Part shown: in pieces, positions 3,701 through 43,545 of the stretch
Layout: each line of letters starts with the position of its first letter
Position numbering within the stretch: position 1 is the stretch's first letter
Origin: Plasmodiophora brassicae
Taxonomy: Eukaryota
DNA length: 64,000 bases
Direction: 5' to 3'
Assembly: GCA_036867785.1 (NCBI GenBank)
Contig: CP145421.1
Span: 124,001 to 188,000 of the forward strand
Translations under genes and position numbers: made by a program
Notes under the pieces: generated by a model
The model's database searches: none
Seen by the model: only the letters and a program-made list of their open reading frames with translations
Told to the model about the DNA's origin: nothing

Positions 3701-5165
3701 TACGTGGACACCTTTGCACCGGTGGCAAAGCTAGCAACTCTGAGGCTGCTGATTGCGTTGAAGGTGATACGGCGGTATACCGCCTGGCAAAGGGACGTCA
3801 AAACGGCATTCCTGTACGCCGACTTGAAGGAGGACGTATACATCCAACAACCAAAAGGCATGGAAGACGATGACCACCCGGACTGGGTGTGGAAGTTGAA
3901 TAAGTCGATCTACGGCCTGAAACAAGCATCGCTCGAGTTCTACAAGCATCTAGTGACCGCGTTCTTGAAGGGCGGGTTTGAACAATGCAAGAGTGATCCG
4001 TGTCTGCTGAAGAAGGTCGACGGTGACGATGTCGTGTTCGTGGCGTTTCATGTCGACGACATTCCGATCGTGGGGAGCTCAACCCGGATTATGCTCGAGG
4101 CTGACCAAGTGTTGAAAGACAACTTCACGGTCGAGGAGAGCGAGTTCGAATGGATGCTGGGGATCAACATGAAGTGGTCGCCAGACGGAGGCGTGCATCT
4201 TAGCCAAGAATCGTTCGTCGAGATGCTCCTGACCAAGTTCCACATGACCAGCGCCAAGGGTGCAAACACACCAATGCAGAAGGGCGAGACGATATCGGCA
4301 CGGGGGAGCCCAAGGACCGACGATGAGCGGATAGAGTCCAAGCGGCTACCATATCGAGAGTTAGTCGGTTCCTTGTTGTATCTCACCGGTACGAGACCCG
4401 ACATCGCGTTTGTGGTGGGACGACTGTGCCGTTTCATGGGCTGCTACGGCGCGAACCACTACGAGGCAGCCAAGCGAGTGCTACGGTATTTGAAGACGAC
4501 GAAGGACATGGCGTTGAAATACCCTGGCTGTGAACAGAGCGAACAGCTGAAGCTCATCGTGGACTCCGATCACGCAGGATGTCCCGACACCGGAAGGTCC
4601 ACCACCGGGTATATGATCAAGTTTGGTGAATGCATGATCACGTGGAAATCCGTGCTGCAGAAGACTGTGGCGCTGTCGACCACCGAGGCCGAGTACATGG
4701 CCCTATGCAGTGGGGTGCGCGAGCTATTGTGGGTGAAGCAGGTGTGTGAGTTTCTTCAGGTCAAAATTGAAGGACCGATCGCGGTGTTCACGGACAACAC
4801 TGGAGCGATGGCCATTTCGAACCACCAAGGGGATGACCTGCGTGGGAGGACCAAGCATATGAACGTGCGCTACCACTTCACGAAAGAACAAGTACATGCA
4901 GGAACCATCAAGCTGCACCATGTACCGAGCACGAGGAACGTTGCGGACATCCTCACGAAGCCACTCACGAGGGATGCATTCGAGGGGCATCGTGCGAAGA
5001 TCCCGATCGATTCTGCGGGGGAGTGTCAGACTTTCGCCCAGTAACTCCAGCTTCGATCGGGATGCCCTCGGAACATTCCGAGAGGCAACTAACCTGCGGA
5101 CTGCGCGATACATAAAAATCATTCTGGTGTTGTATTGCGTCGAGGCGGACCGTCCACTTCTGTCA
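736..5165 (+). mobile_element. Full-length Ty1/Copia LTR retrotransposon (Copia-1)
   Basis: 142-bp LTRs 736-877 and 5024-5165 (TG..CA, 1 mismatch seen), 5-bp TSD CACTC, PBS 878-891, PPT GCGGGGGAG before the 3' LTR. Domain order gag-PR-IN-RT-RH. Confidence 0.97.
904..5044 (+). CDS. Copia gag-pol polyprotein with one frameshift near 1460
   Basis: Zn knuckle CHRCNQMGH, PR-like WVNDDAAPWHVC, WHERFGH..C..C, IN IHADISG/DKGGEF/NELAER, RT KARLVAKG/DVKTAFL/HVDD, RH DSDHAG/ADILTKPL. ORFs 847-1506 and 1457-5044 join if one G is removed from CGTGGGCAAG. Confidence 0.93.
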
Positions 5166-6772
5166 CACTCATTGGCGTAATTAGTGTGGAACACACTAAT
5201 TGGATACCACTTTTTTCGATAGGTCAGACCACATTCAGTGTGTGTCACAGTAATAGGGAACTAACACTAATCACACGCTAAAATAAATAGTGTGATTAAC
5301 ACTATTCAAATTTCACCCTATTTAGTGTGTGTCAGCAGGTACGCAAAATGGCAGAAGGAGGTCACATTTTGTCGCACTATGACCTATACATGGGACTGGC
5401 TCATCATCGAAATGGTTTCGATGTTTGGAGATAATGGCTTGGAGGTTAGGGTTGAGCTGCGCCGGGAGGCAGCGCCCACCCGTGCCTGACCGTCGTCCCC
5501 GTCTACAGACAATTCGTCTTATCCTGAGCGATATTCAATTGATGTCACGCGACACCCACCAACGGCTCGCCTTCATGTAGTTCGCATTCGATGTGCCTCG
5601 GAAGTGTTCAGGGAGTTCGCGAATTGTCCTGCCGAACAGGCGGGCTTTGCCATGAGAAGCGTCGTCGCTGACCATCCACGATACACCTTCATCCGCGTCT
5701 GCTGCGCCGACACTTGCTGCAGCTTACGCTTCCGGTCGTTACTTCTTTCTGGTCCCACATCAGTTTCGACCTCTTCTTCTGATTGTCGAACTTCCGGAGC
5801 ACCATCTGGTTGCTGTCTTGAGCCGCCAGATTCCTGCTCGTCCTCTGACGATGAGTCATTATCGTCGATCCCGGCCCGCTGTTGCTGTGCACGTGCAAAC
5901 GCGGCTGCAATCGTTGATGCGGAGAAGACAGATATTGCTGGCATCGCGTGGCCCTCGTCCTGAGAAACCTGGCAATCGCGTATGTGTAGTCTGTTCGGAC
6001 TCCGGAGATGTACAGGTACGCCGCGGAGGCAAGTCTGTTACAAGTCGAGCAGAGCATTCACTGAGTGTTGCTATATATAGAAATCATGGCCGGATGGAGG
6101 TGGTATCCCATTAGTGTTAGTAACACTAATGGGAAACTAACACTATTTAGTTTTACACACTAATTACGCCAATGAGTGTAGTGCCAATTTGGTGTCGTCA
6201 AGTGCCAATAAAGGGCTGATGGGCTAATCCACGGGATGGCACTAATTTGGCACTTCTGTTTTTCCATTGAATGTCACTCTGACGTCAGACATGTTGTATA
6301 TCTGATGCAGGCAATATAGCACGAATCAGGCTCTGCAGGCTGGTTCTGACAAATCGCGGAATGGCGCAATTTACCAAGGCGTCTTGAACTTCTTCCGCAG
6401 TCGGGGAATTGCAAACAGTGACGCCGTGCAATGGCCCTTCGACGAGACGAAGCGGAGTAAGTGCATGCACTGACTGTCAACGACGTGTACCTAATGTGGT
6501 ATTAAACCTGCAGTGATTAAAAACTTTCTGGCCAACGCCAAGGCTGCCGCTGGCCTCAGTCGGAAGGAACCCGGGACGAAGAAGCGCTTCAAGAAAGCGC
6601 CAACCGGGATGATAACAGGAGACGGGCCCAAATTCCGCTTCCTGGAGCGTTTATGGGCCCGGATGAAAGAAATCCCAGACGGCCATCCAGGCCTGGAAGG
6701 AGAGGAGATGCTGGAACGCGCTATGACGACGTTTCGAAACACGGCCGGCACCTGGAATTCACAATCTGATTA

Positions 6773-7672
6773 GAGCGTGTTTCAAGTAAAAATAGAGGTG
6801 AAATCAATAGAGGTCCGCGCACTTTCGTGTTTTAAGTAGAGGTCACCTCAATTGCACCTCTATTTTCCGAAAGTAGGCTCACGGAGTCCGTGGAGTCTGC
6901 AGCTCACTGCAAGTAGACCGGTAGACGCCATGGAGAAGTCGGACGAGACACCGAAGAGGAAACGTGGTCGGCCCGAGAAAGGAGAGGACACCAGCGAGAC
7001 CATATCGTGGCGGGCCAATATGGTGGAAGTGCTTCTGGCGTCCAAGGAGCAACTTCGCAGTTACTTCTTGGACGCCAAAAACAAGCAGCAACTGAGCAAG
7101 GGGTGGCAGCGACTGGCTGGCATGTTCAACAATCAGCTGGGCATGGATGTGCCGCTTGAGAAGATCAAGATCAAGTACCAGCAGGTGCTCGCCCAGTATC
7201 GCAAGTTGAAGGCTGCTGATCGCGAGAAGGGCGACAACTCTGACACCATCTTGACTATCTGGTCAAACGACGCTTTCGTGCAGCGCAAGTGCCGTTTGAA
7301 CCATCCTACATTAAACGTGCTGTCATTGCACGCGTCACGAAACTGGCCGGCGCGCATGGAGATGCGTTTCGAGGGAGCTGTCGAAATTCTCGACCATCGA
7401 GTAGGTTACGCGAGGCAATCACAGCACAAGCGGCCGCACAGATGGTCACCGCAGCACCCTGAGCGGCAGCAATGGTTGAAACACATTCAGTCGCTACACA
7501 GCACGTTTCTGGTTGACACCGATGCCTACCGTTCCGGACGCCGTCATCTCTATTGTTGAAATAAGAGGTCCCGGACCTCTTTTTAGAAAATAGAGGTAAC
7601 GTAACGTGTAACTTCGAACCTGTTGGTCAGGACCTCTATTGATTTTGCTCTATTTTCACTTGGAACACGCTC
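6773..7672. mobile_element. Internally deleted PIF/Harbinger transposon
   Basis: TIR GAGCGTGTT(T/C)CAAGT(A/G)AAAATAGAG, 3-bp TSD TTA (6770-6772, 7673-7675). Convergent remnants of a Myb/SANT ORF (+) and the transposase N-terminus (-; WFKRHLRCTKASFDQIV). Confidence 0.88.
6930..7240 (+). pseudogene. Harbinger Myb/SANT-like DNA-binding protein, 3'-truncated
   Basis: MEKSDETPKRKRGRP..W....VEVLL...W..LA..FN......EKIKIKYQQV, the typical pattern of Harbinger ORF1. Confidence 0.7.
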
Positions 7673-15261: not shown

Positions 15262-16197
15262 TAAGAACGACAATAACGAAGTGATTTATTCCACCGACAT
15301 CGGCGCGAGACGATGGCGACGTAACGCAGTGTAACAGGGCTTGCCAAAGCCGTTACCGGCAACGGCGACGGTGGCGGAGCCTCTGTTGTGGACGTGACAC
15401 AGTCGCGCACCCACACAATGTCATCGTGTGCCGGTGGTAGGACATGGTCCTCGACACGCCCCCTCCAACGGCACGCGGTTGCATGCGGAAGGCGGTCGAA
15501 CGGACGTGTCCCGGCTGGATCTTCGACTCTGGATCATGTACAACACGACCTTGCTCGTGCTTGTATGTCTTGGCTTGTTGACGCGACACGAGACTGATCG
15601 TGGCGTAGCTAGAGCTGACATGTATGGCGCGATATGCTGGGGCGGAGTCGACAGTGACGACAGAGACTGAAGGACGTGGCTCGGGACGACACCGACGCCG
15701 AAGGCGCCGGCGGACAACGTTATATCGAGAAGAGGTTGAGGCAAGCGATTGAGGCCCGTACGACCGGCGTACGCCTGGCGCTTACGTCCCGGTACTGGTT
15801 CTGGATTCCCGTAATGACGGCCTGCCTTGCTTGCACGATCTGCCTCGGCTCTCTGGCGCGTGGCGCGACTGGAGTGGGCGTTCGTGGCGCGTTGTGCAGA
15901 AGCAGGGTCAGGGCAGAGACGCAGTGACGCGGGACTGGCTCTGGATGGCACCGGCGCGCCGGGCGCCGGCGGGCTCGCCGCCTCGAAGCGCGCGAACGCT
16001 ACGACTGTTAATCTAAGAACGACAATAACGAAGTGGATGTATTACGTACGGCGTGTGCGGCGGACGTTACAGTGGCGACGTAGTCGCCGACGGTGTAACG
16101 GTTGCCAACGCCGGCGGGCACGGAGTCGCGGAGTGCGTGACGGCGTTCACGTGCTGCAGGCATGTGCTGCTGGTCGTAGTGGATACGTTGTTCGACA
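15262..16197 (-). mobile_element. Non-autonomous TRIM-like element (TRIM-B) with discordant LTRs
   Basis: 3' LTR 15262-15456, PPT, internal region homologous to TRIM-A, PBS 16000-16013. The 5' LTR 16014-16197 shares only TGTCGA and the last ~22 bp. No TSD. Confidence 0.8.
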
Positions 16198-16636
16198 GCA
16201 TCGTCACGACGACGTCAGCCTCGCCACGTCATCGGGCTAAATCGGGGCACGCAGTTTGTCTAAATATAGTCCAGGACCGTCAGGTCAGGTGGCAGCACGT
16301 TGATGTAGGGAACGAGACGCTATAAATAGAGCCCCGCTCTACACTGCCTTTCTCCAAACTCGTGACCGGAATCATCGGTGAGCACGTAGTACGTAGATGG
16401 TGAAGTTGACAGAAGGTAGTGTGAGACTCGGAATCACCCAATACTCACTAAAAACCACCTTGTAACCCCATGGGAAAAATCGGTGGAAAATCCATTTACG
16501 GACACCCTTGCCACCAAACACCATCGGTGCAACGAAGACATAAGCGATGGTGCGCTCGACCCACATAGGTGGAGCCCGGTCCATATACATCTGGAAAGTA
16601 TCATTCACCTAACTCAGCGGCCGACCCACATAGGTG

Positions 16637-17586
16637 TGTCGAGGATCATGTCGTACCACCGGCACACGGTGACACCGTGACAGTGCGCGACTGCGTAACG
16701 TCCTCGGCAGAGGCTCCGCCACTGACGCCGTTGTCGGTAACGGCTTGGCAAGCCCCTGTTACACAGCGTTACATCGCCACCGTCTCGCGCCGATGTCGGT
16801 CGGAATAAATCACTTCGTTATCGTCTTCATCAGATTAACAGTCGTAGGCGTTCTGCGCGCTTCGAGGCGGTGAGCCCACCGGCGCCCCGCGCGCCGGTGC
16901 CATCCAGTGCCAGTCCCGCGTCACTGTGTCTCTGCCCTGACCCTGCTTCTGCACAACGCGCCACGAACGCCCACTCCAGTCGCGCCACGCGCAAGAGAGT
17001 CCAGGCAGATCGCGCCAGCAAGGCAGGCCGTCATTAAGGGGATCCAGAACCAGTACCGGGACGTAAGTGCCAGGCGTACGCCGGTCGTACGGGCCTCAAT
17101 CGCTTGCCTCAATCGCTTCGCAAGATAACGTTGTCCGTCGGCGCAATCTGCGTCGACGTCGTCCTGAGCCAGATCCAACACCCTGCGCGTCATCGTCGAA
17201 CCCGCCTCAGCAAATTGCGCCATTCATGTCACCTCAAGCTACGCCACGATCCGTCTCGTGCCGCGTCAACGAGCCAAGGCATATGAGCACGTGCAAGGCG
17301 GTGTTGTTCATGATTCAGAGTCAAAGGTCCAGCCGGGACACATCCGTTCGACCGTCTTCCGCATGCAACCGCGTGCCGTTGGAGGGGGCGTGTCGAGGAT
17401 CATGTCGTACCACCGGCACACGGTGACACCGTGACAGTGCGCGACTGCGTAACGTCCTCGGCAGAGGCTCCGCCACTGACGCCGTTGTCGGTAACGGCTT
17501 GGCAAGCCCCTGTTACACAGCGTTACATCGCCACCGTCTCGCGCCGATGTCGGTCGGAATAAATCACTTCGTTATCGTCTTCATCA
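16637..17586 (+). mobile_element. Young non-autonomous TRIM-like LTR element (TRIM-A, 950 bp)
   Basis: 196-bp apparently identical LTRs 16637-16832 and 17391-17586, TSD AGGTG, PBS GATTAACAGTCGTA, PPT GGAGGGGGCG, no pol. Confidence 0.95.
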
Positions 17587-21720: not shown

Positions 21721-22086
21721 AGTCCCAGTGTACCCGTCAGTCTTCTGGACCGTTTGCGCCTTGCGACTGAGATGCCATGACGTTGTAAACAGTTGCGACG
21801 CTCCGCCGCCCGTTAACGTGTAACGTGTACGTGTGGTTGGACGTATACGTAGGGGTGGGACGTAGTGCGCACTGTAGTCCCGTGTCTGCAGACTCTTGAC
21901 GGCACGTAATGACACAGAAACAGAATGACGTTTATCGATCGCATCGTCACGACGACGTCAGCCTCGCCACGTCATCGTGCTAAATCGGGGCACGCAGTTT
22001 GTCTAAATATAGTCCAGGACCGTCAGGTCAGGTGGCAGCACGTTGATGTAGGGAACGAGACGCTATAAATAGAGCCCCGCTCTACA

Positions 22087-24196
22087 CATTGGATGACACC
22101 GGAACGGGGGATGCTGATGGTAGCGGTGGGATAACGGCGTCGGCAGCAGCGGGTGATGATGTAAGAACGGCAACGGTGGACGGGGAACTGGCGGCGAGTA
22201 CGGGCGCGGCCTGTGAAGACTCGAGACCAGAGTTCGACCGCCCGAAGCCGAAGGTGAACGACGTTTCCAGGAATTCGGCCGTCGTGCTCTCGAATGTGTC
22301 ACCTCGTTCGACGTCATAGAAGCGCCATGCCTTCATCCCTGGCGTAAAGCCGATGAATACAGCGCGAACGCGACGATGATCCAGCTTGGTCGGCTTCTTC
22401 GAAGAGGGGTAAGGGCGCATGGCGTACGTGTCGCAGCCGTAGACGCGCAGGGAAGAGACATCAGGTTTAGCGAAGCGAGCCGCCTGGAACGATGAGCGAC
22501 GCCCCGGAAGGACGGATCGAGGATGGACATTGTAGAGGACGGCAGAATACGAGAGCGACCAGGGCCAGGTGAAATCGGGCATACGCGCGTGACACCGGAT
22601 AGCGCCTTCGATACAGCACAGGCTGTAGTTGACAATTTCGGCTCGGCCGCTCTGCTCGGGCGTATACGGAACCGACTTGCGATGAAGGATGCCGGACTCA
22701 TTGTAGAATGTAACGCATGCCTTGGAATTAAACTCGCCTCCGCCATCTGTTTGGAAGTCGGAAATGCCACGTCCCTCCTGGTTACGTAGACGTGCATCGT
22801 AGTGCTTGATGACATCGAGGGCGTCCGATTTTCGACGGAGCAGGTAGACGGCCAGGTAGCGCGTTGAATCATCCAGCATGGTCTGGTAATACTCGACGCC
22901 AATACCGACGACAGGCCACCGCCCGGAGAGGTCACTATGGACGAGATCGCCAACGCGACGTGCTCGCGACGTACTGGGAGGGAATGATGAGCGCTTGCCT
23001 TTGGTGAGAAGACAGGCCTCGCATGGACATCGATCCTGAAGCTTGGGAATGGGCTGATCGAAGGCCATTCCCCGACAGCGGCGCTGCAGGAGACGCAGAT
23101 AGACGTAGCCGAGATGTCCAACGCTGTAGACCGGACCGCCCAACTAGGCCACGGGAGCAGCTGCTCTCGTGGCCTAGTTGGGCGGTCCGGTCTACAACGC
23201 GCGCGTGCCAAAGGGCGGTCGATGCGGAGGCGACTGTGGCGGCGCGGCAGGACACGCTGGGCGCAGCCGATGAATAAATTTCAGTTGACGATGGGGCAGC
23301 GGGAGCACGGAGGGCGATCCTGTAGAGATTATCGGCTCCTCGCGTGCTGACCGCTAGCGGGGTCCCGACAGGGGACGTCCAGTTGTCCTTGGAATAGATG
23401 GTCGCGTTGGGCCCATCGAAGACGATCTTGTGTCCGGATCGGGTGATCTGTCCAACGGAGACGAGCGCTTGGCCGAGTCGTGGGACGTGCAGCGTGTCGT
23501 TCGGGACTGTTGTACGGAAACGTTGGGCAGCGGCTTGCAGACGAGCCGCGTACAAGGCGACCGATTCACCGGCTTGCTGTCGAACACTGAACAAATCTTT
23601 AGAAGCACGAATGACAGACGAAAACGTGCAGGGTCGCAGCATGCGGAAGAGAGCGCGCCAGCATTGCGCCGATGTACCGGCGTACAGCAAGTTGTAGCCG
23701 ATCAGAACGGTCTTGTCGACCATCTGAAACAAGAGTATCTCCCGAGCAGGTGCCTCCAGATCCGCGTCCACATTGTCGGGGATACTCGGAGTCGGCGATC
23801 CGTCCAGGTCGATGCCGACAATTCCCGCGAATCCACGGTTGGTAAACCAAGACGCGGCGGCGGGCGCCCAAGCGGCAAACATTTCGTGCTTGCCGTCGAA
23901 CCGAGGCGGAGGCACGCGATCTGTACCTGGACGCACTACGCCGTCCACAATGGTTGGGCGAGGCTGCGTCGCCGGCGTCGTGGCGATGCAGGAGTACGAT
24001 GCGGTTTGCTGTCGCAGGAATGCGATGCGCGCGATCTTCTCCTGTCGCTCGGCCTCAGCGAGCTGCGCGTCGAGATCTTGGACATCTGACTCCGCCGTTC
24101 GGCCGCGATCGGCCATGACGTTGGACGCGAGCGAAACGCCCAGAGCGCGGTTACGACTGTTAATCTGAAACGACGAAATCAGAGTGAGATATATTG
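22087..24196 (-). mobile_element. Truncated Copia (Copia-2): LTR end, PBS, gag, partial PR, integrase; RT/RH missing
   Basis: PBS 24152-24165, gag PRFDGK..FAAW, LHVPRLGQALVSV, WHAR|VGHL, VHSDLSG/TDGGGEF/EQSGRAE. Confidence 0.9.
23125..23196. mobile_element. 72-bp palindromic insertion with TGTAGA..TCTACA ends
   Basis: 36+36 inverted repeat with one mismatch, 4-bp TSD ACGC. Removing it restores WHARVGHL. Confidence 0.9.
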
Positions 24197-25887
24197 TGCC
24201 TTTATGGCGGAAGAAGGGCAGAGAAAGTCTCACAAAAATGCGCAGTCACAAAACCGCGCCGGTGATCTCCGCCAGAATACCTGTACATACCTACTTACCT
24301 ATCAACAAGGTTTAACAGCATCCAGCGCATTGGATTTGTTTATTCAACCCTGCCATCCGCACCCGTTCGAAGGATGCGAGCCCGGGCACCGACGTTTCTT
24401 AAAATCTGTGTGCGCGAACTGGTCCCCCCATCGTCTAGCGAATTCGTCGTCATGATCGTTACAATGTCGCCTCAAACAGTTCAAGACGGGGGTCAGGACA
24501 TTATAATAGAACGTTCTCATGGACGGCGTGAACGAATTCTTGGCCCTCCCTGCACACTGGATCTCAATACGCCGCATCGTTCGCAACTTCGCGTGCGTAT
24601 CAATGTTCGACATGTCCCGATTAGCGACGTCAAAATCGCCTGCTTCACGACGACGACGTTTCCCGGATCGAGGTTCGGGTTCAAGGTCATTACGTGGTTG
24701 CTCGTCAGAAATTCCACCTGCCTGTCGCCCATTGTCAGCAATGGGAACGTGGGCACGCGGTTGTGATTGAGGAAGTCCTCGTTCAGCGTCTGCGTTGAAG
24801 GCATCGTTATTGTTGGCGGGCGCATCTCCACTGGAATCCTTGTCGCTAGACACAGCAGGTCGTGCCCGGTTACGCCCACGAGCAGAGCGGCGCTGGTCGG
24901 CATTGTTATCGGCAGCATCAGGAGCATGACGATCTTGAACTCCTAGTCGCCGAACCCTTTCGCTTGCATCAGCGCAAGAATGTTGTCGATTTTCGTGTCG
25001 ATACTCTGATCCCTCGCCTGCAGGATAGCTTGTGAGAGTGCTATGATGTTTCTGGTCTTGTTCCGAGCCAGCACTCTTTGAGCAACCAAATTCTCGACGA
25101 AGATCCGTACATGCCTAAACAAATCCGGCAGGCCGCCGATGGGATTCTCGTTCAGAGCCACCAGTTCTCTATGGTCGGACATGTGGATCGCCTCCCATGT
25201 GTAATCGACGGTTAACAAAGCGCTTCGCCTGTTGACGAGTCAGTTCCGAAATTGCGTTAGGTTCACATGAATGCGAATTACTTCTGAAGCGATATCATCT
25301 TCAGGAAAGCTGCTGCCGATCCGTAGTACCGTTTAGCGCTTTCAACGGTTTTGTGCCGTGCTGACAGCATGATCTGCCCCAGTTCACCTTTCCCCCAAAT
25401 AGCTAACAAATAGCCAGTTTTTCGGAGGGTATGCGTTCCCCAAACTCGCCCGTCATCGCGTCCAACAACGTCCGAGAGCAGCTTCTTCAGTCTACGGCCA
25501 CGATTCGCCGTCAAATACACATTCGTAAGTGCACCATACGAGACCTACTGGTTGTTAAAGGTGGTGAAATCGAAGCAGTCACTAAAACCCTTCTTCTTGG
25601 GAAATAGGTAACCCGACGTTATGCCTGATACGCTGAGCCACAGTAGCAGGTGGCTAACCAAGCATAGTTCGGGAACATCTGTACAGCGCCATATCATTAA
25701 CGGGACAAACGATCCATCAGCCTTGCCCTTGATCTTGACGCCCATGCAGTTAACGTCGCCATTATCGGGATTGACAGATACCAGACTCGTCAGAATGTCT
25801 TCAATTCGGAATGGACACCCTTCGGCGGATCGGAGGAAGAGCTGGCAGTGGAAAAGGATCATCGTATAGAGACGAAGTCCCTCATAT

Positions 25888-26072
25888 TGTAGACGGTGGA
25901 GCAGTGCAGCATGCCCTGTCGCAGCCAGAGATACCAAGAACAGCATCTAGGAGAGGCAGCCCTAAGACCAGGAGAGTCCGTACGGCATGCGGGAAGGCCG
26001 GACGGCGTAGAGGGGGAAGGATTGGAGAGATCTGGGAACGAGGACGCTGAGGCTCTCGATACACGATCTACA
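25888..26072. mobile_element. Solo LTR (185 bp)
   Basis: TGTAGA...TCTACA termini, 4-bp TSD ATAT. Removal restores the YR reading frame. Confidence 0.85.
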
Positions 26073-26859
26073 ATATCGATCTGCGCTGAGTAGCGCTTTG
26101 CGAATGGCGATCAGTTCATGTGGCATCAGAGGCGAATCACCTTGCGCAGTGTAATCAACGAGGTCGATTTGCGTCACGCGACGGTACCGGTTCTTCACGT
26201 TCTGATGCGATCGCGGGCAGCCCGATCTCCACAAGCGCGGGACTCCAGCGTGAAAATTACACGAGACATTATTGTCCCGGTACGCGACAATACACGCAGG
26301 ACATGGTTCTGAGTACTGTCCGCTCTGGTGCCTCGCAACATGCAAATCACTGACAGCTGACAACAGCTGGTTGCATGAGTTCGGATCGTTCCAGGCACCC
26401 GTTGCGAGGATAGGCTGTCTCGAGAAGTAATCCAGAACGGGACCAACGCGATGAGAACTGACGGCATCGTCACGATGCACAACAACGGGAGTGCCAGGTG
26501 GCAGGACCTTGAAATCGATGAACGCCATGAGTGTGTCTGCACTCATCGATGGACAGAATTCGGTGGGAGCTCGCTCGTCGAGAATGATCAATGACTCAAA
26601 ATCACCAATTCGTTTGCAGAACAGAGCCAGCTGACGGTAGAGCTGCTTGTACTGCTTGTGCGAGTTCTGCTTCAGGACGCGATTGCCAGTCAGTTGCCTG
26701 TCACGATCAGGCAAGCTGATGCAACGAACGCTTTGACGGACTGGCGAAGTCCGTCGCGGGGTTCTCGGTTTATTCCGGACAGTCCTCACATAATAGTCCC
26801 CTTCTAGCGATGGGCCTCTGACGGGTCCGGGATAGAAGGGCAGACGGATGGCCTCTGAT

Positions 26860-27142
26860 GGGTCGCAGACGAACGGACAGGCGGATGAGCAGGCAGACGG
26901 ACGGGCAGACGGACGGACAGACGAACGGACAGGCGGATGAGCAGGCAGACGGGCGGGCAGACGGACGGACAGACGAACGATGAGCAGGCAGACGGGCGGG
27001 CAGACGGACGGACAGACGGACGAACGGGCAGACGGACGGACAGACGGACGAACGGGCAGACGGACGGACAGACGGACGAACGGGCAGACGGACGGATTAG
27101 CAGACGGACGGAGAGACGGGCGGGCGGGCAGACGGACGAACA
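26860..27142. repeat. (GACG/GGCA/GACA)n tetranucleotide-based microsatellite inside TRIM-C
   Basis: Visible GGAC/AGAC/GGGC iterations. Confidence 0.9.
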
Positions 27143-27166
27143 GGTTTGGTTAGTGACAGCACGTCG

Positions 27167-27965
27167 CAACCGAGGCCTTGACGTTGTGCAGGAGATGCCG
27201 AGGCGGGATCGACACTGGCGGACGGACGGACGGGTAGAGACAGCAAGCGGTCAGGGAAACACCGGCGGCCTGGGAGGCAAACAGCACGGCGGGACACGCG
27301 CACTCTGGAACTTGGACCAGCTGCGACCGAGGCCTTGACGTTGTGCAGGAGATGCCGAGGCGGGATCGGCACGGACGGACGGGAAGAGACAGCAAGTGGT
27401 CAGGGGAACACCGGTGGCCTGAGAGGCATACAGCACGGCGGGACACGTACTCTGGGACTTGGGCCAGGTACGACCAAGGCCTTGACGTTCTGCGGGGGAT
27501 GCCGAGGCGAGATCGGCACGGACGGACGGACGGGCGGGAAGAGACAGCAAGCGGTCAGGGGAACACCGGTGGCCTGAGAGGCATACAGCACGGCGGGACA
27601 CGCACTCTGGGACTTGGACCAGGTACGACCGAGGCCTTGACGTTCTGCGGGGGATGCCGAGGCGAGATCGGCACGGACGGACGGGAAGAGACAGCAAGCG
27701 GTCAGGGGAACACCGGTGGCCTGAGAGGCATACAGCACGGCGGGACACGCACTCTGGGACTTGGACCAGGTACGACCGAGGCCTTGACGTTCTGCGGGGG
27801 ATGCCGAGGCGAGATCGGCACGGACGGACGGGAAGAGACAGCAAGCGGTCAGGGGAACACCGGTGGCCTGAGAGGCATACAGCACGGCGGGACACGCACT
27901 CTGGGACTTGGACCAGGTACGACCGAGGCCTTGACGTTCTGCAGGAGATGCCGAGGCGGGATCGA
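27167..27965. repeat. ~147-bp tandem repeat, ~5.3 copies, inside TRIM-C
   Basis: GACC(G/A)AGGCCTTGACG recurs at 27325, 27472, 27627, 27774, 27921. Confidence 0.95.
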
Positions 27966-28614
27966 CAGGAGGGTGGTGGGATAGGTAGTCCGTCAAAATG
28001 TCACGATCAGGCAAGCTGATGCAACGAACGCTTTGACGGACTGGCGAAGTCCGTCGCGGGGTTCTCGGTTTATTCCGGACAGTCCTCACATTGCCCGCCG
28101 TGAGCTGAGAAGCGCAGGCCCATGCGGGCCAATGCCTCGCCGACTCTCTGCCGAACCACATCTTCTTGCGACGTTGTGAGCGGACGCATTCGCTGTTGCA
28201 CACCGTTGTCGACCAACTCGTCAACTGCAGACGCCCCGAAAGACCGCCTCTCTTGCCGAAGATTGCGCCGACGGGGTCGCAGTGCCCCCGACCCCGTAGG
28301 GGGAAGGGTACGGGGAAGGAGAGGGGAAGGTGCGGGGAAGGTGGCCATTTTGCAACCGGATAACGTCTTTCCTATAGATTATTTGTCAGGATAATATGTC
28401 ATATGGACCCAAAATAGAAGCATGGGAGAGCCTGATTTCGTGAGAGCACTGGAATGAACCACAATGTCGACAGGAGTCCGAACCTTCGGGACGAGGTGGA
28501 GGCTGGAATGGACTATCCAGGATGAAAGCTACCGTTTGCCTCCAAGGTCCTCATTTTTCGCTACATCCTGTCAAACATGCATGTCATATTATACGACACA
28601 ATCCACGGAGTTTG

Positions 28615-29758: not shown

Positions 29759-30723
29759 GGTCTGGCGCGGGTATGAGTAGGTAGGGGAGTCGAAGATATT
29801 GGTTGGCACCCAGCAGCCGTCGAACTTTTCAGCTGAACGCGATCGGTAGTCGATATCAGACTGGCCGGCGACCAGGCCGCAATCCGCACTCCTCACGGCA
29901 TCACTCTCTAGTGCGCGGCAGTCCGCGTGCACACTGCGCACTGCGCAGTGCCTCCTGCGGTCCTGCCTACCCTTCCCCGGCCTCCGGCCGCAGCCCGCAG
30001 CCCCCAGTCCCCAGTGGACCCTGAAGATGTAAGCTGCTCCTCGGGCCCAGTTGGCAGGCCGGTCTGCAAAACGATAAGACCCGCCGGCGCGCTGTTGAGC
30101 AGCCTCGTCTGGGGCATCCGTGAATTGGCAATATCGCCCGCGCCAGACTACTGAGTACTGACTTTCGCGACCGACAGCGCACAGAATGGGGCGGTCGGCG
30201 AGTGTCGCCCAACGGTGCGCCGCTGGGCGCAGGCGACAATGCGCCGCTGGGAATGCCCGACATCCCGAGCCGTGACCATCTGGCGAGGGCCGACGCTCGG
30301 GGCCCGCACGCGCTTGCGCGCACCAATCGAAGCTCGCGGCAACATGACGACCGAGAGACAGACGCCGCCGCCTGGGTGCCGGCCCGTCCCAGTGCACTGT
30401 GTCGCTGCCGTGTCGCTGCCGTCGCTCGGGGGAGGGATCCAGCACCACATGCAGCGAGCACTTTGCCTGATGCTGCGTCGGTCCCAAGACGCGTCGTCGA
30501 TTGGCGACAGCAGACAGGCGTGTCCCGTTCGTCCAATCGTACGGCTCGACGTCGGTCTAGTGCCGGCCGGACTGCTGGGTCATCTGCCGCGCGAGAGATT
30601 TTGTCCGGACTGAAGCAGTTTGGCCTAGACCATGTCATCCCGACCTGCTGGAAGCGGCCATATCGGACCTCGACGATCGGCATCCGGGACCAAGACCGGA
30701 GCCCACCACACGTCCAGCTTAGG

Positions 30724-30918
30724 TGTGAGGACTGTCCGGAATAAACCGAGAACCCCGCGACGGACTTCGCCAGTCCGTCAAAGCGTTCGTTGCATCAGCT
30801 TGCCTGGTCGTGACATTTTGACGGACTACCTATCCCACCACCCTCCTGTCGATCCCGCCTCGGCATCTCCTGCACAACGTCAAGGCCTCGGTCGCAGCTG
30901 GTCCAAGTTCCAGAGTGC
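30724..30918 (+). mobile_element. Truncated TRIM-C copy (5' LTR + PBS + start of body)
   Basis: LTR 30724-30815 nearly identical to the TRIM-C LTR, followed by TTTTGACGGACT. Confidence 0.9.
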
Positions 30919-31706
30919 GTCGCGCCGGCATGAACGCGCCGATGAACCGTGATCATCATAGGTGCAGCTAGGCTGTGCATATGATACACACTGCCATGCT
31001 GCCGACGTCGCTGCGCGAGGGCGGCATCGGCCTCTTGGCTTTCATCGACGTGCGCGCCGTGCAACGAGCGCCGACTGGAGGCGACCCGGTCGCCGTTCGA
31101 CGCTGGCGCGACGTTCGAGACGTCGGCCTCGGTCGCGTTCCAGGCAAATTGCCGGCCGGAGGCGGCCGGCGACCTGCTCACCGACCGCCGGTTGGGTACG
31201 CCGACGTCCTGACACGACATGGCCATGGATGAGGCCGACGCGGTCGTTCACCGGGCCCCTGATCCTGGATTCGCCACGCTGTGCACGCCACCGACGACGA
31301 CGACCGGGGCCTGGGCCAGCCGGTCGCTGTCGTCGTCGACTACGCCCTCCTGGGCATTGGGTGTTAGCGATCAGGAATGTCCCTCGATCGGCAATACCGT
31401 AAAAAGCAATGTGCCGAACCCGATCCTCGAGTGCACCGAGGTACCTGAGGTCATCTACTGTGAACCTGCACCAAAACGGGCATGAATTGCATTGCACAGC
31501 TTCTCCATTACATCTGCGCGCCTGGACGGAACGGTCTCGATGCAAACTCTATTAGTTTCCACGACCTGGGCTGCAGCTACTAAAAGCTTAACACATTCAA
31601 CGCGCCTACTGCTAGGTTAGATACTAATGGTACGGGGTTTGTTGATCGATACTTGTACCTATTCGCGCCGGGTGGACTCGTAAGCTGGTCTGCGCAGTGC
31701 TTCGCG

Positions 31707-35519: not shown

Positions 35520-36931
35520 TAGAGGCCGGCGACCACTTTCCGATCCGGCTTTCGGAGAAAGGCCTGCTTGATACGACCTGTACGTACGGGCGGTGTGTCA
35601 GCTAGGGCGACAGCGCCCCAGCGGGATTGGCACAACGGCGTCGTACCTGCGACTGGTGCCCCGGCCCGCTTGCATACCGTTCTTCCTACTGTGCCAACAA
35701 CGACCGACGTGGGATTGCAAACGGCGTTCGCCAGGTGGTACATGTACAGTACGTGGCCCAACGACGAGCGGTTCGCCCGGCCGCGCCTTTAACGCCGAAC
35801 AGCGAATCGCGCGGATGGCGTGGGCGCGCCTGTGCTCGACGATCTGGTGGGCGCCTGCAGCGTAACGGTCTGGTACGGTCCATGGAACGCGCTGACGATC
35901 AAGTAACGATTCTTACGCCATTTACGCAGGGCAACCTGGGCTGGGCGCGCATTGTCGTCGACGGTGACCAGGTCGGTCTGGAAGCGGAACATGCGGTCGG
36001 CGAACCGGTGCTTGTCGTTGTCGACGTTTCGGTCCTCGCCGGGCAGGGCGACTTCGCCGGGCAACAGCCCGCCGGGCTTGACGCGGCTCTCGTACGCGGC
36101 GATCACCTTGGTCATCGTGGTACAGAATCGGCCACTTGGGCGACGCCCCGCCGCTTCCACCATGATGTCGGACTCGACGACTTTGAACTTATCGTCGTCG
36201 TTCAGGTCGAGGACGTCGCGCTCCAGGTGCGGATCCTCCTTCATGTCAAGGCGCGGCCGGGTGAACCGCTCGTCGTCGGGCCACGTACTGTACATGTAGT
36301 CGAGCTCGTCCTGGTGGTCGGCGCGGGCGGTCTCCTGGCCCGGTTTCTTTCCAAAGCACGTGCGCACGTGCTCGCGATGCGCAACCTCGTCGGGCAGTCC
36401 ATGGGCGCGCGCCTCCAGGTTCCACAGCAATTCCTCGTACCGGCCGCGCATGGCCATCGCGACATTGGCTGGACCAGTCCTCGGAACCGGTCGAACACGT
36501 TCTTGTTGATCGGGCCGGGAACCTTGTAGCGCGCCTCGACGATCGCATCGTGGCCCTCCTGCTCCGTCGCCAGCTTCTTGAACTTGTCCGACGCCCTTAG
36601 CTGGGCCTCGACCGCCTCCTGCTGCAGGGTCATCGTCCAGGAGGCGGACGGCCCGTGAACCGTCTCGCCGACGCGCTGCCCGACGCCTTGCACACCGGCC
36701 GGCCACGTTCGCCGGACATCGTCGGTCGCCTTGGCGGCTGCGCAGCAGCAGGCGGACGGGCGCCTCGACCGCATCGTCGTTCTGATCTGGCGCAGCACGT
36801 TCAGGACGCCCAGGCTCCAGAAGATCATGCTCCCGTGCTTGATATTGCGGCGCTACCTCGCCGTCAGGCGGGCGTCGTCGTCGCCCATCTGCAGACGTGT
36901 GGAGGTCGCAGCGTAAATGCCTGTTAACCAC
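35520..36931 (-). pseudogene. Degraded DUF4246-like gene with an inverted paralogous fragment
   Basis: Frameshifted ORFs 36241-36828 and 35789-36931. The + strand fragment reads DWHNGVV and YMYSTWPNDERF; the - strand reads YMYSTWPDDERF and FRFQTDLVTVDD. Family call is from motif memory only. Confidence 0.35.
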
Positions 36932-37064: not shown

Positions 37065-37558
37065 ACCTGTCAAGAGGCAGAAAGCGTGCCTGATCGGTCA
37101 TCCGAGCTTGATGATGGCCTTTCTAGGAAAGTTCAAGCAGCCAACCACCGACAACGGCATCGATGTCAACGCGGACGTCTTCCGCGACGTTGGAATTGTT
37201 GATCGCTGTGTCGGTCTGTTGCTGCAACAGGGGCTTCCGCAGGACTGGTTTTGCTTTCTGGACGTTCTATGAAATGAAATAGCACTCCAGTGCACCTTGG
37301 TGAACAGCGTTAAGTTCTTGAACATCGGGCACTGGAGTTCTATCTCATTTCGCAGTACGTCCAGGAAGCAAAACCAGTCGTGCGGAAGCCCCTGTTGCAG
37401 CTGCAGACCGACACAGCGGTCAACAATTCCAACGTCGCGGAAGACGTCCGCGTTGACATCGATGCCGTTGTCGGTGGTTGGCTGCTTGAACTTTCCTAGA
37501 AACGCCATCATCAAGGTCGGATGATCGATCAAGCATGCTCATGCCTCTTGACAGGTCC
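37065..37558. repeat. Long inverted repeat (arms ~230 bp, ~30-nt spacer)
   Basis: 37065-37296 is the reverse complement of 37327-37558 with scattered mismatches; mirrored ORFs on both strands. Confidence 0.93.
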
Positions 37559-38656: not shown

Positions 38657-39941
38657 ATGTCCATCAGCAATCGCGTTCGACCCAGCGGTACGACAGCCAC
38701 GTCCCTGATCCTGGTCGCCGGCCTCTTCGCTGGGATCCTGGATGTCGCCATGGGGCTCCCTCCACACGGCACCGGTGACGACATTGCCGCCACACGTCCG
38801 GGCGACACGGATGGCGACATTGCTTCCGCTGCTTCAAACATGAACGACTGGGGCACGATCGCTGCTATGCGCTGGCGCCAGCGCTCAATGCCGGATCAGT
38901 TCCAACAGGCCGTCGGTCGCGTTCCAGGCATGGTACGGCTCATGCAAGTTATGACTACCCGGCACCGACGTCGCGATATAGTTAAGAACATTCGCCGCCA
39001 CCTCGTTACCGGTTCCGGTCCACACACCATCGCGTACCTGACGTGCGAGGCGGAATGGAACGAACGTCAATCGTTGTTGCATTGGGCCGCGTTTTACGGA
39101 GAGAAAGAGGTTGCCGAGTTCGTGCTAAGTGCCCCGGGAGTTGTCGTCAATGCGGTCGGGGCGAACCGATTGCGGAGTAGGCCTCTGCATCTGGCCTATT
39201 GTCAAGTTGATGCTGGCTGCACCGGGAATCGACGTTAATGCACGCGATGATGATCTGAGATCGCCACTGCACTTGGCCGTGATAAGTGACAAGCCAAAGG
39301 TGGTCAGAATCCTGGCGAGTACCACTGGGGTGGACATCAACGGCCTCGACTCGAACGGGAAAACCCCTCTGGAGTGCGCGATAGACGGTTGGGATGCGCA
39401 TCCCACCCATCGACGTCTCTACTCCATCGTGGCCCTGCTCAAGGCCGGCGGCCGTCTTGGTACAAATGACTACACGGTGCTGTACTGGGCCGTGAAGAAC
39501 AACAGTACACACGTTGCTAAGATGTTGCTCAAGCAGCCATGGATCGATGTCAACGCTGGAGGTCGACGCGTGCCGACACCACTGTACCAGGCCGTGGAGA
39601 CGCAAAACTCTTACATGGTCAAGATGTTGCTCAAGCACCCGAAGATTGATGCAAACCGTGGCAATCCTTTATTGCTGGCCGTCAAGGACGGCACCCTTCA
39701 GATCGCTGTCATGCTCGTCAAGTGCCCGACGCTCGACGTCACATGCCAAGCGTTCCGCAAGGCGCTGGACATGGCCAGGAAACGCCAATATACAGACCTC
39801 GTCTCGTTGATGAATGAGCTCTGGAGCGACGTCGACATTGACGGTCCCATCTCCATGCCTGCGGCTCTGAAGACCTTCTTCAAGAACCCGTGTATCACGA
39901 GCTTGAACTGTGTGCCAAATGTGCACCTTCGTACGCGCTGA
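38657..39941 (+). pseudogene. Secreted ankyrin-repeat protein ANK1, frameshifting deletion near 39197
   Basis: Signal peptide SLILVAGLFAGILDVAMG, ankyrin motifs LLHWAA, PLHLA, GIDVNARD; split across two frames. Confidence 0.85.
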
Positions 39942-40531
39942 CCGCTGTCGCATCCGGAACGTATGGCCACTTTTGCATTACAGACTTTGGTGATTTGCTT
40001 GTGCGCTGCCCGTCAATTATTGACCCGCTGTACCATCGTAGTTCATATTTAGGATCAGGTATGTCCAGAACCTCAAAAGGCTATGTAGATCTGTAGTACT
40101 GTTGCCTAGTGGGCGTTGTACATCCGGTGTGTTTCCAACGACATCGTTTGGGGGAAGGAGCGCGAAGCAGATCATGGGGAATCGGACTCGGAGGTTGTGC
40201 AAGGCGGTAATATGAGCACGATCATCTGCCACGAGAGAACAGGAGGTGGGGTGGGTGGGGTGGGGGGGGGTAGCAGCGCGCATATACATGTCGCGTTTCG
40301 TAGCGATAGCGGCATGAGAGCCGTATAGACAGACGGCGGCCTGGACGCCTGGATGTCACCAGCGCTGCGGAGTCCGCCGCGCATCCGCAATCCCGGCCGG
40401 TCAAGACGCGCAGTTTTGAAGACCGAGCGGGATTCCGTCCCCGGTGCAGTGAGTGCGGATTGCGGGTTCTGCCGTTCTGGCCAGACTGCTTTTTGTCATC
40501 GGTGTCGTCGATCTCCCAGCGTTCGGCATCA

Positions 40532-41237
40532 ATGTCCATCAACAATCGCAACCGGCCAAGCGGAATGCCAGCGTTTTCCCTGATCCTGGTCGCCGGCGTC
40601 ATTCTCGCTGGTATCATTGACTGTGTCATGGCCGATGGTGACGACTTCGCGACCTCGAAGATCAAAGAGTTAAACCAGGCCGTGCGCGGTCACAAGCTCA
40701 ACAAGGTCAAAACTCTGGTGCAATCCAATGGTATGGACGTCGTCAACGGCGTCGACAGGGACGGGAAAACACCTTTGCAGAATGCGCTGGAGGTTTGGAA
40801 TGTGTGCCAGACTTCTGTAACTCGTTCCATCGTCAGGGCTCTGATCAACGCTGGCGCCGGTGTTGGGGCGGAAGGACGAACGCCGGCACTGTACTGGGCC
40901 GTGGATAACGACTTTCGAGACATGATCGATATGCTGCTACACGTCCGGCCTGGAGTCGACGTCAATATCGGCGCATCGACACGAAGTCGTTAAGCTGCTG
41001 GTGGAGGCGCACGGGATCAATGTCAATTCGGACAACCCGTTACTGTCGGCAATCCGGAATGGCGACCTGGAGATCGCTGCGACTCTCGCCAATTCCCCGA
41101 GGCTCGACGTCACTTCCAAAGGGTTCCAGGAGGCGTTGCGGTTTGCTCAATGGCGAGCTGTGAATAGCGACGAGGGCCGTGGCTATTCACAGCTCGGGTC
41201 CATGATGGTTGACAGAGCCGAACGTGCCGCGACGTGA
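40532..41237 (+). pseudogene. Secreted ankyrin-repeat protein ANK2, shortened and frameshifted near 40980
   Basis: Signal peptide, GKTPLQNA, LYWAV, NPLLSAI. ORFs 40460-40993 and 41001-41237. Confidence 0.8.
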
Positions 41238-41690
41238 TGTTTCTGCTTTTGATCGGCGGACTGTACCAGACCGCAAATCGACCTTCATTGATCATTTCGC
41301 TACACATGTGTAACGAACAATCGTCCCTGCGGTGCTTCTCGTAGTACTATGAGCTAGGCTTTCTTTGTTTTTCCGCCGCCTTCCGACTAGGAAAGCGTCG
41401 CCGTACGTCGAAACCACGCCGCACTGTCAGTGGATCACATAGGATACATATTGCGATAGGTCACAAGCAGCAGACCGGCGACAAGTTGGATGCAGAAAGA
41501 CGTTGTATCCCAGTATTTCTATATCCGGTTGGTATGTACGTACCTTACCTGTGCCAGCAAGTCCGAGAGGAATCCACTGCGGGCGCCGTGCGAGCGCGCA
41601 GCTAGGGCAGCAGACCAGTTCCCCAGTATATTCCGAGCGAGATCGACATCTTCGGCTCAGCTGCTCATCAACGTACCGAGGTCGGATACA

Positions 41691-42914
41691 ATGTCCATCA
41701 GCAATCGCCTTGGATCCCATCGTATGCCGGTGGTTGCGCTGCTGATCCTGACAGCCACCCTTCTCGCCGGTCGCATCCTGCAGGCTGCTGACGTGGCGAT
41801 CGTTCCGGGCGACACCCGCGGCATACCACGCAACCAATGGCCTGCGATCGCAGCCTTGCGTGGCCAGCCCGCATTCATGTCGGCTGTCGACAGCGCTCCC
41901 GGCCTGGCACGCCTCAAGTGGATCGCCCACGACAAGATGAGGAAGGAGATCGTCACTCAACTTCATGAACACCTCTTTACCGGAAAAGCACAGGACAGCG
42001 AAGTCGCCCACCTGATCGGCAAAGAACAATGGGACACACGTCAGACGCTGCTGCACTGGGCCGCAAGCGAAGGCGAGACCGAGATTGTCCAGTTCCTGCT
42101 GAGTGCTCCGGGTGTCACTGCCAATGTGGTTGATGGCACCCATGGGCGGGCGCCATTGCACTGTGCCTCTCGTCAGGGGCAGCGTCCCACTATGGAGTTG
42201 CTGTTGGCGGCTCGGGGCATCCAAGTCAATGCACGCGACTGGAAGCAGAGGACGCCACTGCATTTAGCCGTGATCTCCGGGCAGGACGACGCCGTCATGG
42301 CCTTGGTGAACGCCGACAGCATTGACGTCACAGCCGTCGACGAGGACGGGAAGAGCCCTCTGCAGCACGCGATGGAAGGCTGGCGCCGTGCGAAACCGTC
42401 TTCTGCGCGCCAGCACATCATCAAGGTCCTGATCCGTTTCGGCGCCGGGTTCGGCCCGATGTCAGACGTCACGCCGTTGTACTGGGCCGTGCATCACGAC
42501 CATTCTGACATCGTCGAGCTGCTGCTCAAGATGGAAGGAGTCGATGTCAACGAGGGCGGCGGCAATCAGCCCCTGTGCGAGGCCGTGATGCAAGACCGAC
42601 CTCACCTGGTTACGATGCTGCTGGAGCACGAGAACATTGATGTCAATGCTGGCCACCCGTTGCTGCTTGCCGTCCAGATACGCCACCTTCGAATCGCTAG
42701 GATGCTCGCCCAGCACCCGAGGCTGGATGTCACTTCGCAAGGTTTCCAGCAGGCACTGCAGATGGCCGAGAGGTACGGTTATACGCAACTCGTGTCCTTG
42801 ATGAATGACCGCTGCAGCCGCCGTAAACTGTCGCGTTCCCTGACGTCGGGACTCTTCAAGAACCCATGTTTCTCGATGGACAGCGTCCACGATGTTCATC
42901 GCCCTGCGCAGTAA
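41691..42914 (+). CDS. Secreted ankyrin-repeat protein ANK3
   Basis: Intact intronless ORF, signal peptide, ~7 ankyrin repeats. Confidence 0.92.
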   Translation: MSISNRLGSHRMPVVALLILTATLLAGRILQAADVAIVPGDTRGIPRNQWPAIAALRGQPAFMSAVDSAPGLARLKWIAHDKMRKEIVTQLHEHLFTGKAQDSEVAHLIGKEQWDTRQTLLHWAASEGETEIVQFLLSAPGVTANVVDGTHGRAPLHCASRQGQRPTMELLLAARGIQVNARDWKQRTPLHLAVISGQDDAVMALVNADSIDVTAVDEDGKSPLQHAMEGWRRAKPSSARQHIIKVLIRFGAGFGPMSDVTPLYWAVHHDHSDIVELLLKMEGVDVNEGGGNQPLCEAVMQDRPHLVTMLLEHENIDVNAGHPLLLAVQIRHLRIARMLAQHPRLDVTSQGFQQALQMAERYGYTQLVSLMNDRCSRRKLSRSLTSGLFKNPCFSMDSVHDVHRPAQ

Positions 42915-43545
42915 AGTCGCATATGCCTTTCAGGAGTGACCTTGCCGCCGTAGTATGGTCAGGGAGATGAGAAACACGGGTGCTGGTGTAGAGACAGCGG
43001 CTGGAGCTGCGCACGTAACCGTCGATCAGCGTCTCTGCTGTTACCGACGCTAACAAAATGGGACGCCACCTGACAACGCGTTGACGTCGGACGTGCCGCC
43101 AGCACCGGTACCAATTCCGAATCGTCCGGTTCACATCGAGGCGATTCTACTTTTTAATTGCGTTCAGCACAGGGTGCGGCAGCAATCAATTACCCATTTA
43201 TGCATGCTGAAAGCGAGGTTGATTACGTCAACTCGTTTGCGGCATTCCGAAATCGGCAAATACCGTCACCGACTGATCAATCGACCTGGCGAGGCCATGA
43301 TCAATGTTTGTGCAACCCACTGTATCTGACGGTGTCCTGCAGTGCTGGATGGTACAACGAGCGCGCCCCGGGGAAAGTCCGGGGCGGCATCCGCAAGACG
43401 CAGCCCGCAAGACCACGGGTCAAGGCGCGCAGTTCCGAGAAAGCGCGGAGCCCCTGCCGGGCTGCATGCAGCTGGTCCGTCTCGCAGCGTCCGCACCAGA
43501 CCGGAAAACGTGTCGGAACAACTCAGCCGTTCGTCATCAACATTA

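Follow-up and report, generated by a model that had tools for sequence, protein, structure and literature searches.

In a 64,000-nucleotide stretch of the Plasmodiophora brassicae genome (assembly GCA_036867785.1, contig CP145421.1, positions 124,001 to 188,000 of the forward strand; hereafter the window, from whose first base all coordinates are counted), a 72-bp palindrome at 23125-23196 interrupts the integrase gene of a Copia retrotransposon, Copia-2. This 72-bp unit is a genuine multi-copy mobile family by the usual criteria for transposable elements: it is bounded by its own target-site duplication (TSD), it is missing from paralogous copies of its insertion site, and it recurs beside many unlike flanks in contigs from four studies. 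We read it as a miniature inverted-repeat transposable element (MITE) that consists of two terminal inverted repeats (TIRs) of 36 bp and is probably moved as DNA, in trans, by a DDE enzyme of the retroviral integrase class, a reading to which we give a probability of about 0.55. No published description of the element was found.

A loopless palindrome inserted in a Copia integrase gene

The two arms of the palindrome (23125-23160 and 23161-23196) are reverse complementary with no spacer between them and pair at 35 of 36 positions. The sole mismatch is G23154 against T23167, which corresponds to the single G/A mismatch described in the initial annotation of this DNA if the reverse complement of one arm is set against the other arm. 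The left arm begins TGTAGACCGG and the right arm terminates CCGGTCTACA, giving the element the ends TGTAGA (start) and TCTACA (finish). An automated repeat search gave the arms as 39 nt at 95%, because the flanks partly pair as well. The calculated fold of the element is -47.2 kcal/mol as single-stranded DNA (z = -14.1) and -80 kcal/mol as RNA (z = -15.5), and in neither case was the value equalled by any of 200 shuffled sequences.

The tetranucleotide ACGC flanks the element on both sides (23121-23124 and 23197-23200), and beyond it two more flanking bases (CA) are repeated, which fits the 6-base placement ambiguity of the 76-base joint described below. In its size and its terminal inverted repeats the element corresponds to a MITE, being short and non-coding and having no internal sequence. 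It has no direct repeats, no primer-binding site and no polypurine tract, features by which a long terminal repeat (LTR) retrotransposon would be recognized, and it has the TG...CA ends and a duplication within the 4-6-bp range that are found at LTR retrotransposons and solo LTRs. Its likeness to the LTRs of the window is confined to the terminal 6-7 bases.

The insertion splits the codons for the WHxRxGH zinc-finger motif of the Copia-2 integrase, which is encoded on the minus strand. The Copia-2 piece upstream of the insertion (23197-24245, minus strand), which extends from gag to the integrase N-terminus with only weak gag and Pol_BBD hints, finishes ...STALWHARV, and the downstream piece (22088-23124, minus strand), which carries rve and SH3_retrovirus domains and is truncated at 22087 by an LTR of the retrotransposon Gypsy-2, opens VGHLGYVYL...CPCEAC. 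At the corresponding position of the alignment, the intact Copia-1 of this window has ...STWHERFGHASYDKL (for the downstream piece, E = 3e-27). The halves abut and are offset by one frame because 76 bases were added, and the exact interruption of the WHARVGHL codons between two ACGC copies was thus correctly recognized in the initial annotation.

The element recurs beside unlike flanks and is missing from paralogous sites

Logan contigs were placed on positions 22000-26400 at 90% likeness, using four runs (X5, X16, X2 and X15), each from a different study; the runs containing the stretch carry the labels of one organism or of plant and soil metagenomes. An empty Copia site was present in all four runs. 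In X5, X2 and X15, one contig each joined 23118 directly to 23195, skipping 76 bases (the 72-bp element and one 4-bp TSD copy), and in X16 a contig starting at 23195 carried 10 loose letters identical to 23109-23118. Other Copia-2 copies, where the initial annotation had suggested looking for empty sites, therefore supply the matching empty site that is expected of a MITE insertion.

The element itself was present many times. Contigs that fitted two places of the stretch, which we read as arm-bearing since the arm pair is the only strong internal repeat of 22000-26400, numbered 72 in X5, 42 in X16, 25 in X2 and 22 in X15. The summed depth at 23178 was 38354 in X5, 7992 in X2, 834 in X15 and 13608 in X16, compared with ∼900, 294, 18 and 1308-7180, respectively, in the flanking Copia bins; such sums are not copy numbers and are taken here to indicate tens of copies or more. 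In each run the loose ends of 7-9 contigs started exactly behind 23196/23197, with an agreement among them of 0.42-0.51, and others started before 23125, the left boundary likewise coinciding exactly with position 23125 in other copies. Because these ends agree so poorly at the edges of the unit, we conclude that 23125-23196 recurs beside many unlike flanks. In X5 and X2, 14-21% of the depth came from forms with one-base deletions (at 23139 together with its mirror position 23180, and at 23178), a pattern that sub-families would give. Target duplications were readable at two sites, ACGC in the window and AACC in one X2 contig. The consensus strings of the flanks are mixtures of unlike contigs (agreement 0.42-0.68) and were used neither for a target logo nor for any claim of a larger repeat.

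These data bear on the possibility that the palindrome is not mobile and is instead a scar of local fold-back repair or a fold-back artefact of assembly at this one locus, the artefact having been named in the initial annotation as a finding that would overturn it. The filled junction of the exact Copia-2 copy of the window was seen in none of the four runs, as a scar or artefact would predict. However, neither would recur with the same 72-bp boundaries beside many unlike flanks in four studies, and neither would be bordered by a tidy 4-bp duplication or be matched by paralogous copies whose empty site is shorter by exactly 76 bases. We judge a scar or artefact very unlikely, to the point of being negligible.

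Between 22000 and 24200 there are many positions (for example 22411, 22429 and 22709) at which every contig of the four runs differs from the window; the four runs therefore contain no representative of the window's Copia-2 copy or of its isolate.

LTRs of the window with the same termini

The ends of the palindrome are also the ends of a resident LTR family. A 185-bp solo LTR on the plus strand (25888-26072) starts with TGTAGA, finishes with TCTACA and is flanked by the TSD ATAT (25884-25887 and 26073-26076). In all four runs an empty-site joint connected 25883 to 26073, skipping 189 bases (185 + 4), and contigs that enter other copies of the 185-bp LTR from the left finished in GGAAAAGGGCAG and GAAAAAGGGCAG (X2 and X15), polypurine tracts of the kind found in front of a 3' LTR. 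From the empty site and these purine runs we conclude that 25888-26072 is the solo LTR of a full-length Gypsy-like family, and its identification as a solo LTR with the same hexamers and a 4-bp TSD was thereby upheld. The 185-bp family is related to Gypsy-2 and makes 4-bp duplications. The solo LTR sits in frame (189 bases, or 63 codons) in a minus-strand open reading frame (ORF) at 25545-27149, for which no Pfam family was found even at E = 1.

Gypsy-2 lies on the minus strand, with Gypsy domains in its internal ORF. Its 5' LTR (21928-22087) opens TGTAGAGCGG on that strand, and its 3' LTR (16185-16344) is directly preceded by the purine run GGAGAAAGGCAG. The first bases of the Gypsy-2 LTR are TGTAGAG, in agreement with the earlier observation that TGTAGA also starts this LTR. 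At its far flank Gypsy-2 does not border on Copia-2, as judged by tblastn, and the remainder of Copia-2 lies outside the window; the nesting has therefore been rearranged. Inverted duplications with arms of 367 and 322 nt, together with a 200-nt perfect direct repeat, overlap the region of the Gypsy-2 3' LTR (15293-17586).

The terminal hexamers and the 4-bp duplication are common to the 72-bp element and the LTR at 25888-26072, whereas Copia-1 and Gypsy-1 differ: Copia-1 has TGTCAG ends and a 5-bp duplication (CACTC), and Gypsy-1 likewise has termini other than TGTAGA...TCTACA and a 5-bp duplication (CCGCC), the boundaries of both having been set by eye. When the window was scanned for TGTAG and CTACA paired at a distance of 40-8000 bases and bordered by a repeat of 4 bases, only the 72-bp element and the 185-bp LTR were returned, against 0.58 matches expected by chance among 149 candidate pairs.

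One explanation for this likeness, offered in the initial annotation beside a MITE-like parasite of a retrotransposon integrase, is that the palindrome is a snap-back complementary DNA (cDNA) inserted by an integrase. Folding back as its own primer, a short strong-stop DNA of a TGTAGA-ended Gypsy element would become a 72-nt self-complementary strand; the annealing of two such strands, or the copying of one, would yield a blunt-ended duplex of 72 bp bearing an LTR end at either tip. The Gypsy integrase would insert this duplex with the 4-bp stagger that it normally makes, and every copy would arise anew as a by-product instead of descending from an earlier one. A possible parent is at hand, as the solo LTR attests to a full-length family with TGTAGA...TCTACA ends, a 4-bp duplication and a polypurine tract in this genome, and Gypsy-2 has a like LTR start and a similar purine tract. 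By eye and post hoc, the first 7 bases (TGTAGAC) and the last 7 bases (GGAGCAG) of the arm equal bases 1-7 and 11-17 of the 185-bp LTR. Self-copying gives a palindrome with zero spacer, and the free DNA ends that an integrase needs would be supplied by strong-stop DNA that folds back and primes itself. Retroviral reverse transcription is known to be accompanied by self-priming of minus strong-stop DNA as a side reaction (PMC4668388). Were an LTR end copied by folding back, the product would be a palindrome with no loop and a tip competent for integrase.

Against snap-back integration, the self-primed DNA is known as an in-vitro or abortive product (PMC4668388), and in the available portions of the literature searched we found neither an integrated, amplified repeat of this origin nor integrated snap-back products that form a repeat family. 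The 36-bp arm stands at neither end of any LTR in the window, and tens of copies would demand a very frequent side reaction. The one-base variants look like sub-families and, although variant parent LTRs could also yield them, copy number and apparent sub-families together fit descent better than repeated accidents. We therefore regard snap-back integration as unlikely, yet worth keeping in view: if true, it would describe a repeat family that spreads by integration only, and a present-day intermediate on the route by which LTR ends have been proposed to become inverted repeats of the Ginger type.

A MITE probably moved by an integrase-class enzyme

We favor the reading of the element as a MITE mobilized in trans because its TGTNR ends and 4-bp stagger mark the integrase class and because the human element Made1 provides a precedent for a MITE made of two TIRs. 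From the structure of the element, its duplication, the empty sites and the copies with different flanks, all of which were observed, we infer the class of the enzyme, movement as DNA and supply in trans. The combination of 5'-TGTAG...CTACA-3' ends with a 4-bp staggered cut is the signature of DDE enzymes of the retroviral integrase class, among which the likeliest candidate is a Ginger/IS481EU-like DNA transposase that works on copies in the chromosomes. Supplied in trans, such an enzyme would bind both arms and join their 3'-CA ends to the target. At the Copia-2 locus, the element inserted in the zinc-finger codons and duplicated 4 target bases, adding 76 bases and shifting the frame by one.

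Of the proposal made in the initial annotation, a multi-copy, non-autonomous insertion with its own TSD thus holds, and the parts that named a retrotransposon integrase and cDNA did not gain the same footing. TGTNR ends and a 4-bp duplication also define the Ginger and IS481EU DNA transposons, and we rate the case which that annotation had listed against itself, a collapsed pair of DNA-transposon TIRs, as the likelier of the two.

A different possibility is that the element is a MITE of an unrelated cut-and-paste superfamily with 4-bp duplications, its TG...CA ends and LTR-like hexamer being coincidental. Several superfamilies have short duplications (PMC10045372), and the overlap with the LTRs amounts to only 6-7 bases. 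Yet a TGTNR end combined with a 4-bp duplication is a specific mark of the integrase clade (PMC2836005, PMC10045372), and we consider coincidence quite improbable.

Several superfamilies were considered individually and set aside. Tc1/mariner elements depend on TA as their target, a dinucleotide that is missing at the joint of the empty site GATGTCCAACGCGCGCG. TTAA is the duplication made by Kolobok and piggyBac, compared with ACGC at the 72-bp element, and hAT duplications are longer than 4 bp. Although piggyBac has 4-bp TSDs, its termini are 5'-CC..GG-3' as opposed to the TG...CA observed here, and Mutator-like elements (MULE) make duplications longer than 4 bp (PMC10045372).

Searches for relatives and for a partner enzyme

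Several results weigh against a MITE moved by an integrase-class transposase. The filled junction was missing from the four runs, as described above, and all four bear a Copia-2 paralogue or allele that differs by ∼1-2%, the best share of sampled words being 0.61. Within the window there was neither a second copy nor an LTR or TIR element starting with the arm at up to 3 mismatches, contrary to what the initial annotation had led us to look for. Among the 37 window ORFs scanned, none had an rve domain without a reverse transcriptase, and no autonomous partner was found. The sole enzyme shown in this genome to have matching ends and duplication length is a retrotransposon integrase, which favors snap-back integration. 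In addition, the repeat table of the Pb3A assembly gives only 190 pieces of DNA transposons (Tc1/Pogo 92, MULE 25) beside 2355 unclassified, and the word Ginger was not found among the entries listed in the Pb3A supplement. To these must be added the departures from Ginger1, Ginger2 and IS481EU in target, arm length and host that are given in the comparison below.

A possible diverged solitary arm lies at 30034-30068 (plus strand); it has ∼78% identity end to end with the right arm and finishes TCTGCA. Of 300 shuffled arms, 1 attained its local alignment score of 33, and neither a partner arm, a flanking duplication nor a TSD-supported upstream start was found for it; it may be an old half-copy or a chance match. 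When further short elements with TIRs and repeated flanks were sought, a non-palindromic duplication at the edge of an inverted repeat was found in the 72-bp element only.

Beyond the window, the 80 bases comprising the element and its TSDs had no look-alike in an index of other DNA stretches, and an exact 25-mer of the arm had 0 matches in metagenome contigs of the Joint Genome Institute (JGI). A search of the JGI contigs for both 10-base ends separated by 40-64 free bases returned 12 loci, which we take as chance matches: they have 40-54 identical positions of 72-84, no better than the common ends alone give, and at 6 of the 12 (L003-L007 and L010) the inverted repeat extends into the flanks, so that the motif is not a terminus.

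Neither of two 16-base words taken from the arm was present in two supplementary files of a small-RNA study (PMC13547706), a comparison of low sensitivity in which only 21-mers covering the words would match. Four peptide words encoded by the palindrome were not among the proteins listed in the table of PMC11191646 (Pb3A), and the words integrase, transposase and retrotransposon were likewise not among the entries listed there, giving no lead to a partner enzyme. The repeat summaries available for P. brassicae list Gypsy, Copia, long and short interspersed nuclear elements (LINE and SINE), a small number of DNA transposons and a large unclassified share. In the accessible portions of the P. 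brassicae literature searched, no MITE or Ginger element of this organism is described, and a text search of the literature with the 17-base start of the arm gave no match.

Other repeats of the window

The window contains further repeats of other layouts. At 37083-37539, just upstream of ankyrin-repeat genes, lies a fold-back whose arms of 222 nt (91% complementary) are separated by 13 nt and which is without TGTAGA ends. A pair of 51-nt inverted repeats (96% complementary) that begins TACATGTACAG and is separated by 458 bases lies at 35739-36298 within overlapping ORFs that have no Pfam match. At 26699-28091, tandem arrays with units of 147 bp and 12 bp lie between 93-nt perfect direct repeats that start TGTCACG and are spaced by 1300 bases; an inverted copy is present at 30724-30920, and the layout resembles a gene-less miniature LTR element.

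On a larger scale, positions 1-38000 form a nested LTR block of ∼38 kb that adjoins four ankyrin-repeat ORFs (39129-46682), followed by helicase, cullin and Exo5 genes. A 17-residue word of the cullin ORF, together with its neighboring residues, occurs in protein PBTT_08348 of the P. brassicae assembly Pb3A (PMC11191646). In its layout the arrangement recalls the block of transposable elements beside ankyrin effector genes on chromosome 17 reported in a 2026 pangenome preprint.

Implications

As a very small eukaryotic mobile element consisting of two putative enzyme-binding ends alone, the 72-bp unit offers a clean substrate for defining the requirements of integrase-class enzymes. The hexamer and the 4-bp footprint that it has in common with the resident Gypsy LTR family make the link between LTR ends and Ginger TIRs testable in a genome of ∼25 Mb for which many complete assemblies exist. 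A second point of interest is RNA: in P. brassicae, palindromic regions are processed by a Drosha-like enzyme into small RNAs of 21 nt (PMC13547706), and any transcribed copy of the element would give a 36-bp hairpin, so that the family could seed small RNAs. A unit of 72 bp is easily missed, or left as "unclassified", in automatic repeat annotation, and such insertions may serve as presence/absence markers among isolates.

Comparison with known systems

The nearest comparison within the genome is the Gypsy solo LTR at 25888-26072, which has identical terminal hexamers and a 4-bp duplication. It differs in that it is not palindromic, with only 6 terminal bases inverted, in that a solo LTR arises by recombination of two direct LTRs, and in that it sits in ATAT, unlike the 72-bp element.

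Among DNA transposons, Ginger1 and Ginger2 are TIR elements with ends like those of Gypsy LTRs (TGTNR), 4-bp duplications, non-autonomous copies and an enzyme that is a homologue of integrases. Ginger1 has TGTNR ends, 4-bp duplications and TIRs of 40-270 bp, and its targets are CCGG or CCGT/ACGG in 99% of 112 elements; Ginger2/TDD has TGTNR ends, 4-5-bp duplications, TIRs of 50-180 bp and the AT-rich target RTATAY (PMC2836005). The 72-bp element agrees with both in its end (TGTAG) and its duplication. It departs from both in that its 36-bp arms fall below either range of TIR lengths and in that its two readable duplications, ACGC and AACC, fit neither the Ginger1 targets nor the AT-rich Ginger2 target, the insertion site CAACGCGC being GC-rich. 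The hosts of Ginger elements are mainly animals, with Dictyostelium (TDD-4/5) and a fungal vestige in addition, whereas the host of the 72-bp element is a rhizarian. GingerRoot/IS3EU elements have 6-bp duplications and TA..TA ends (PMC6839031).

IS481EU elements have TGT..ACA ends, TIRs that are mostly <50 bp and 4-bp duplications in several families, with duplications of 15 or 25 bp in some families as well, and they have non-autonomous derivatives (PMC10045372). The 72-bp element resembles them in ends, TIR length and duplication. They differ in host, as IS481EU is reported in this source from parabasalids only, namely Trichomonas and its relatives, and P. brassicae lies outside that range. 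The 72-bp element cannot be filed in any one family among Ginger1, Ginger2 and IS481EU, because the target rules do not hold at its two readable sites, its arms are too short for Ginger and its host is outside the range of IS481EU.

The closest parallel in architecture is Made1, which belongs to Tc1/mariner and has a TA target, a feature absent from the 72-bp element. Made1 is a human MITE derived from the mariner Hsmar1 and consists of two 37-bp TIRs and 6 internal bases, 80 bp in all (PMC1784062). Like the 72-bp element it is a near-perfect palindrome of similar size that is made of two TIRs, is non-autonomous and multi-copy, and would form a very stable hairpin if transcribed; it differs in having 6 internal bases where the 72-bp element has none, and the latter has TG...CA ends and a 4-bp duplication. 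Repbase classes non-autonomous DNA elements by their termini and duplication length (PMC4455052), and on these features we regard the 72-bp element as a MITE with ends of the integrase type.

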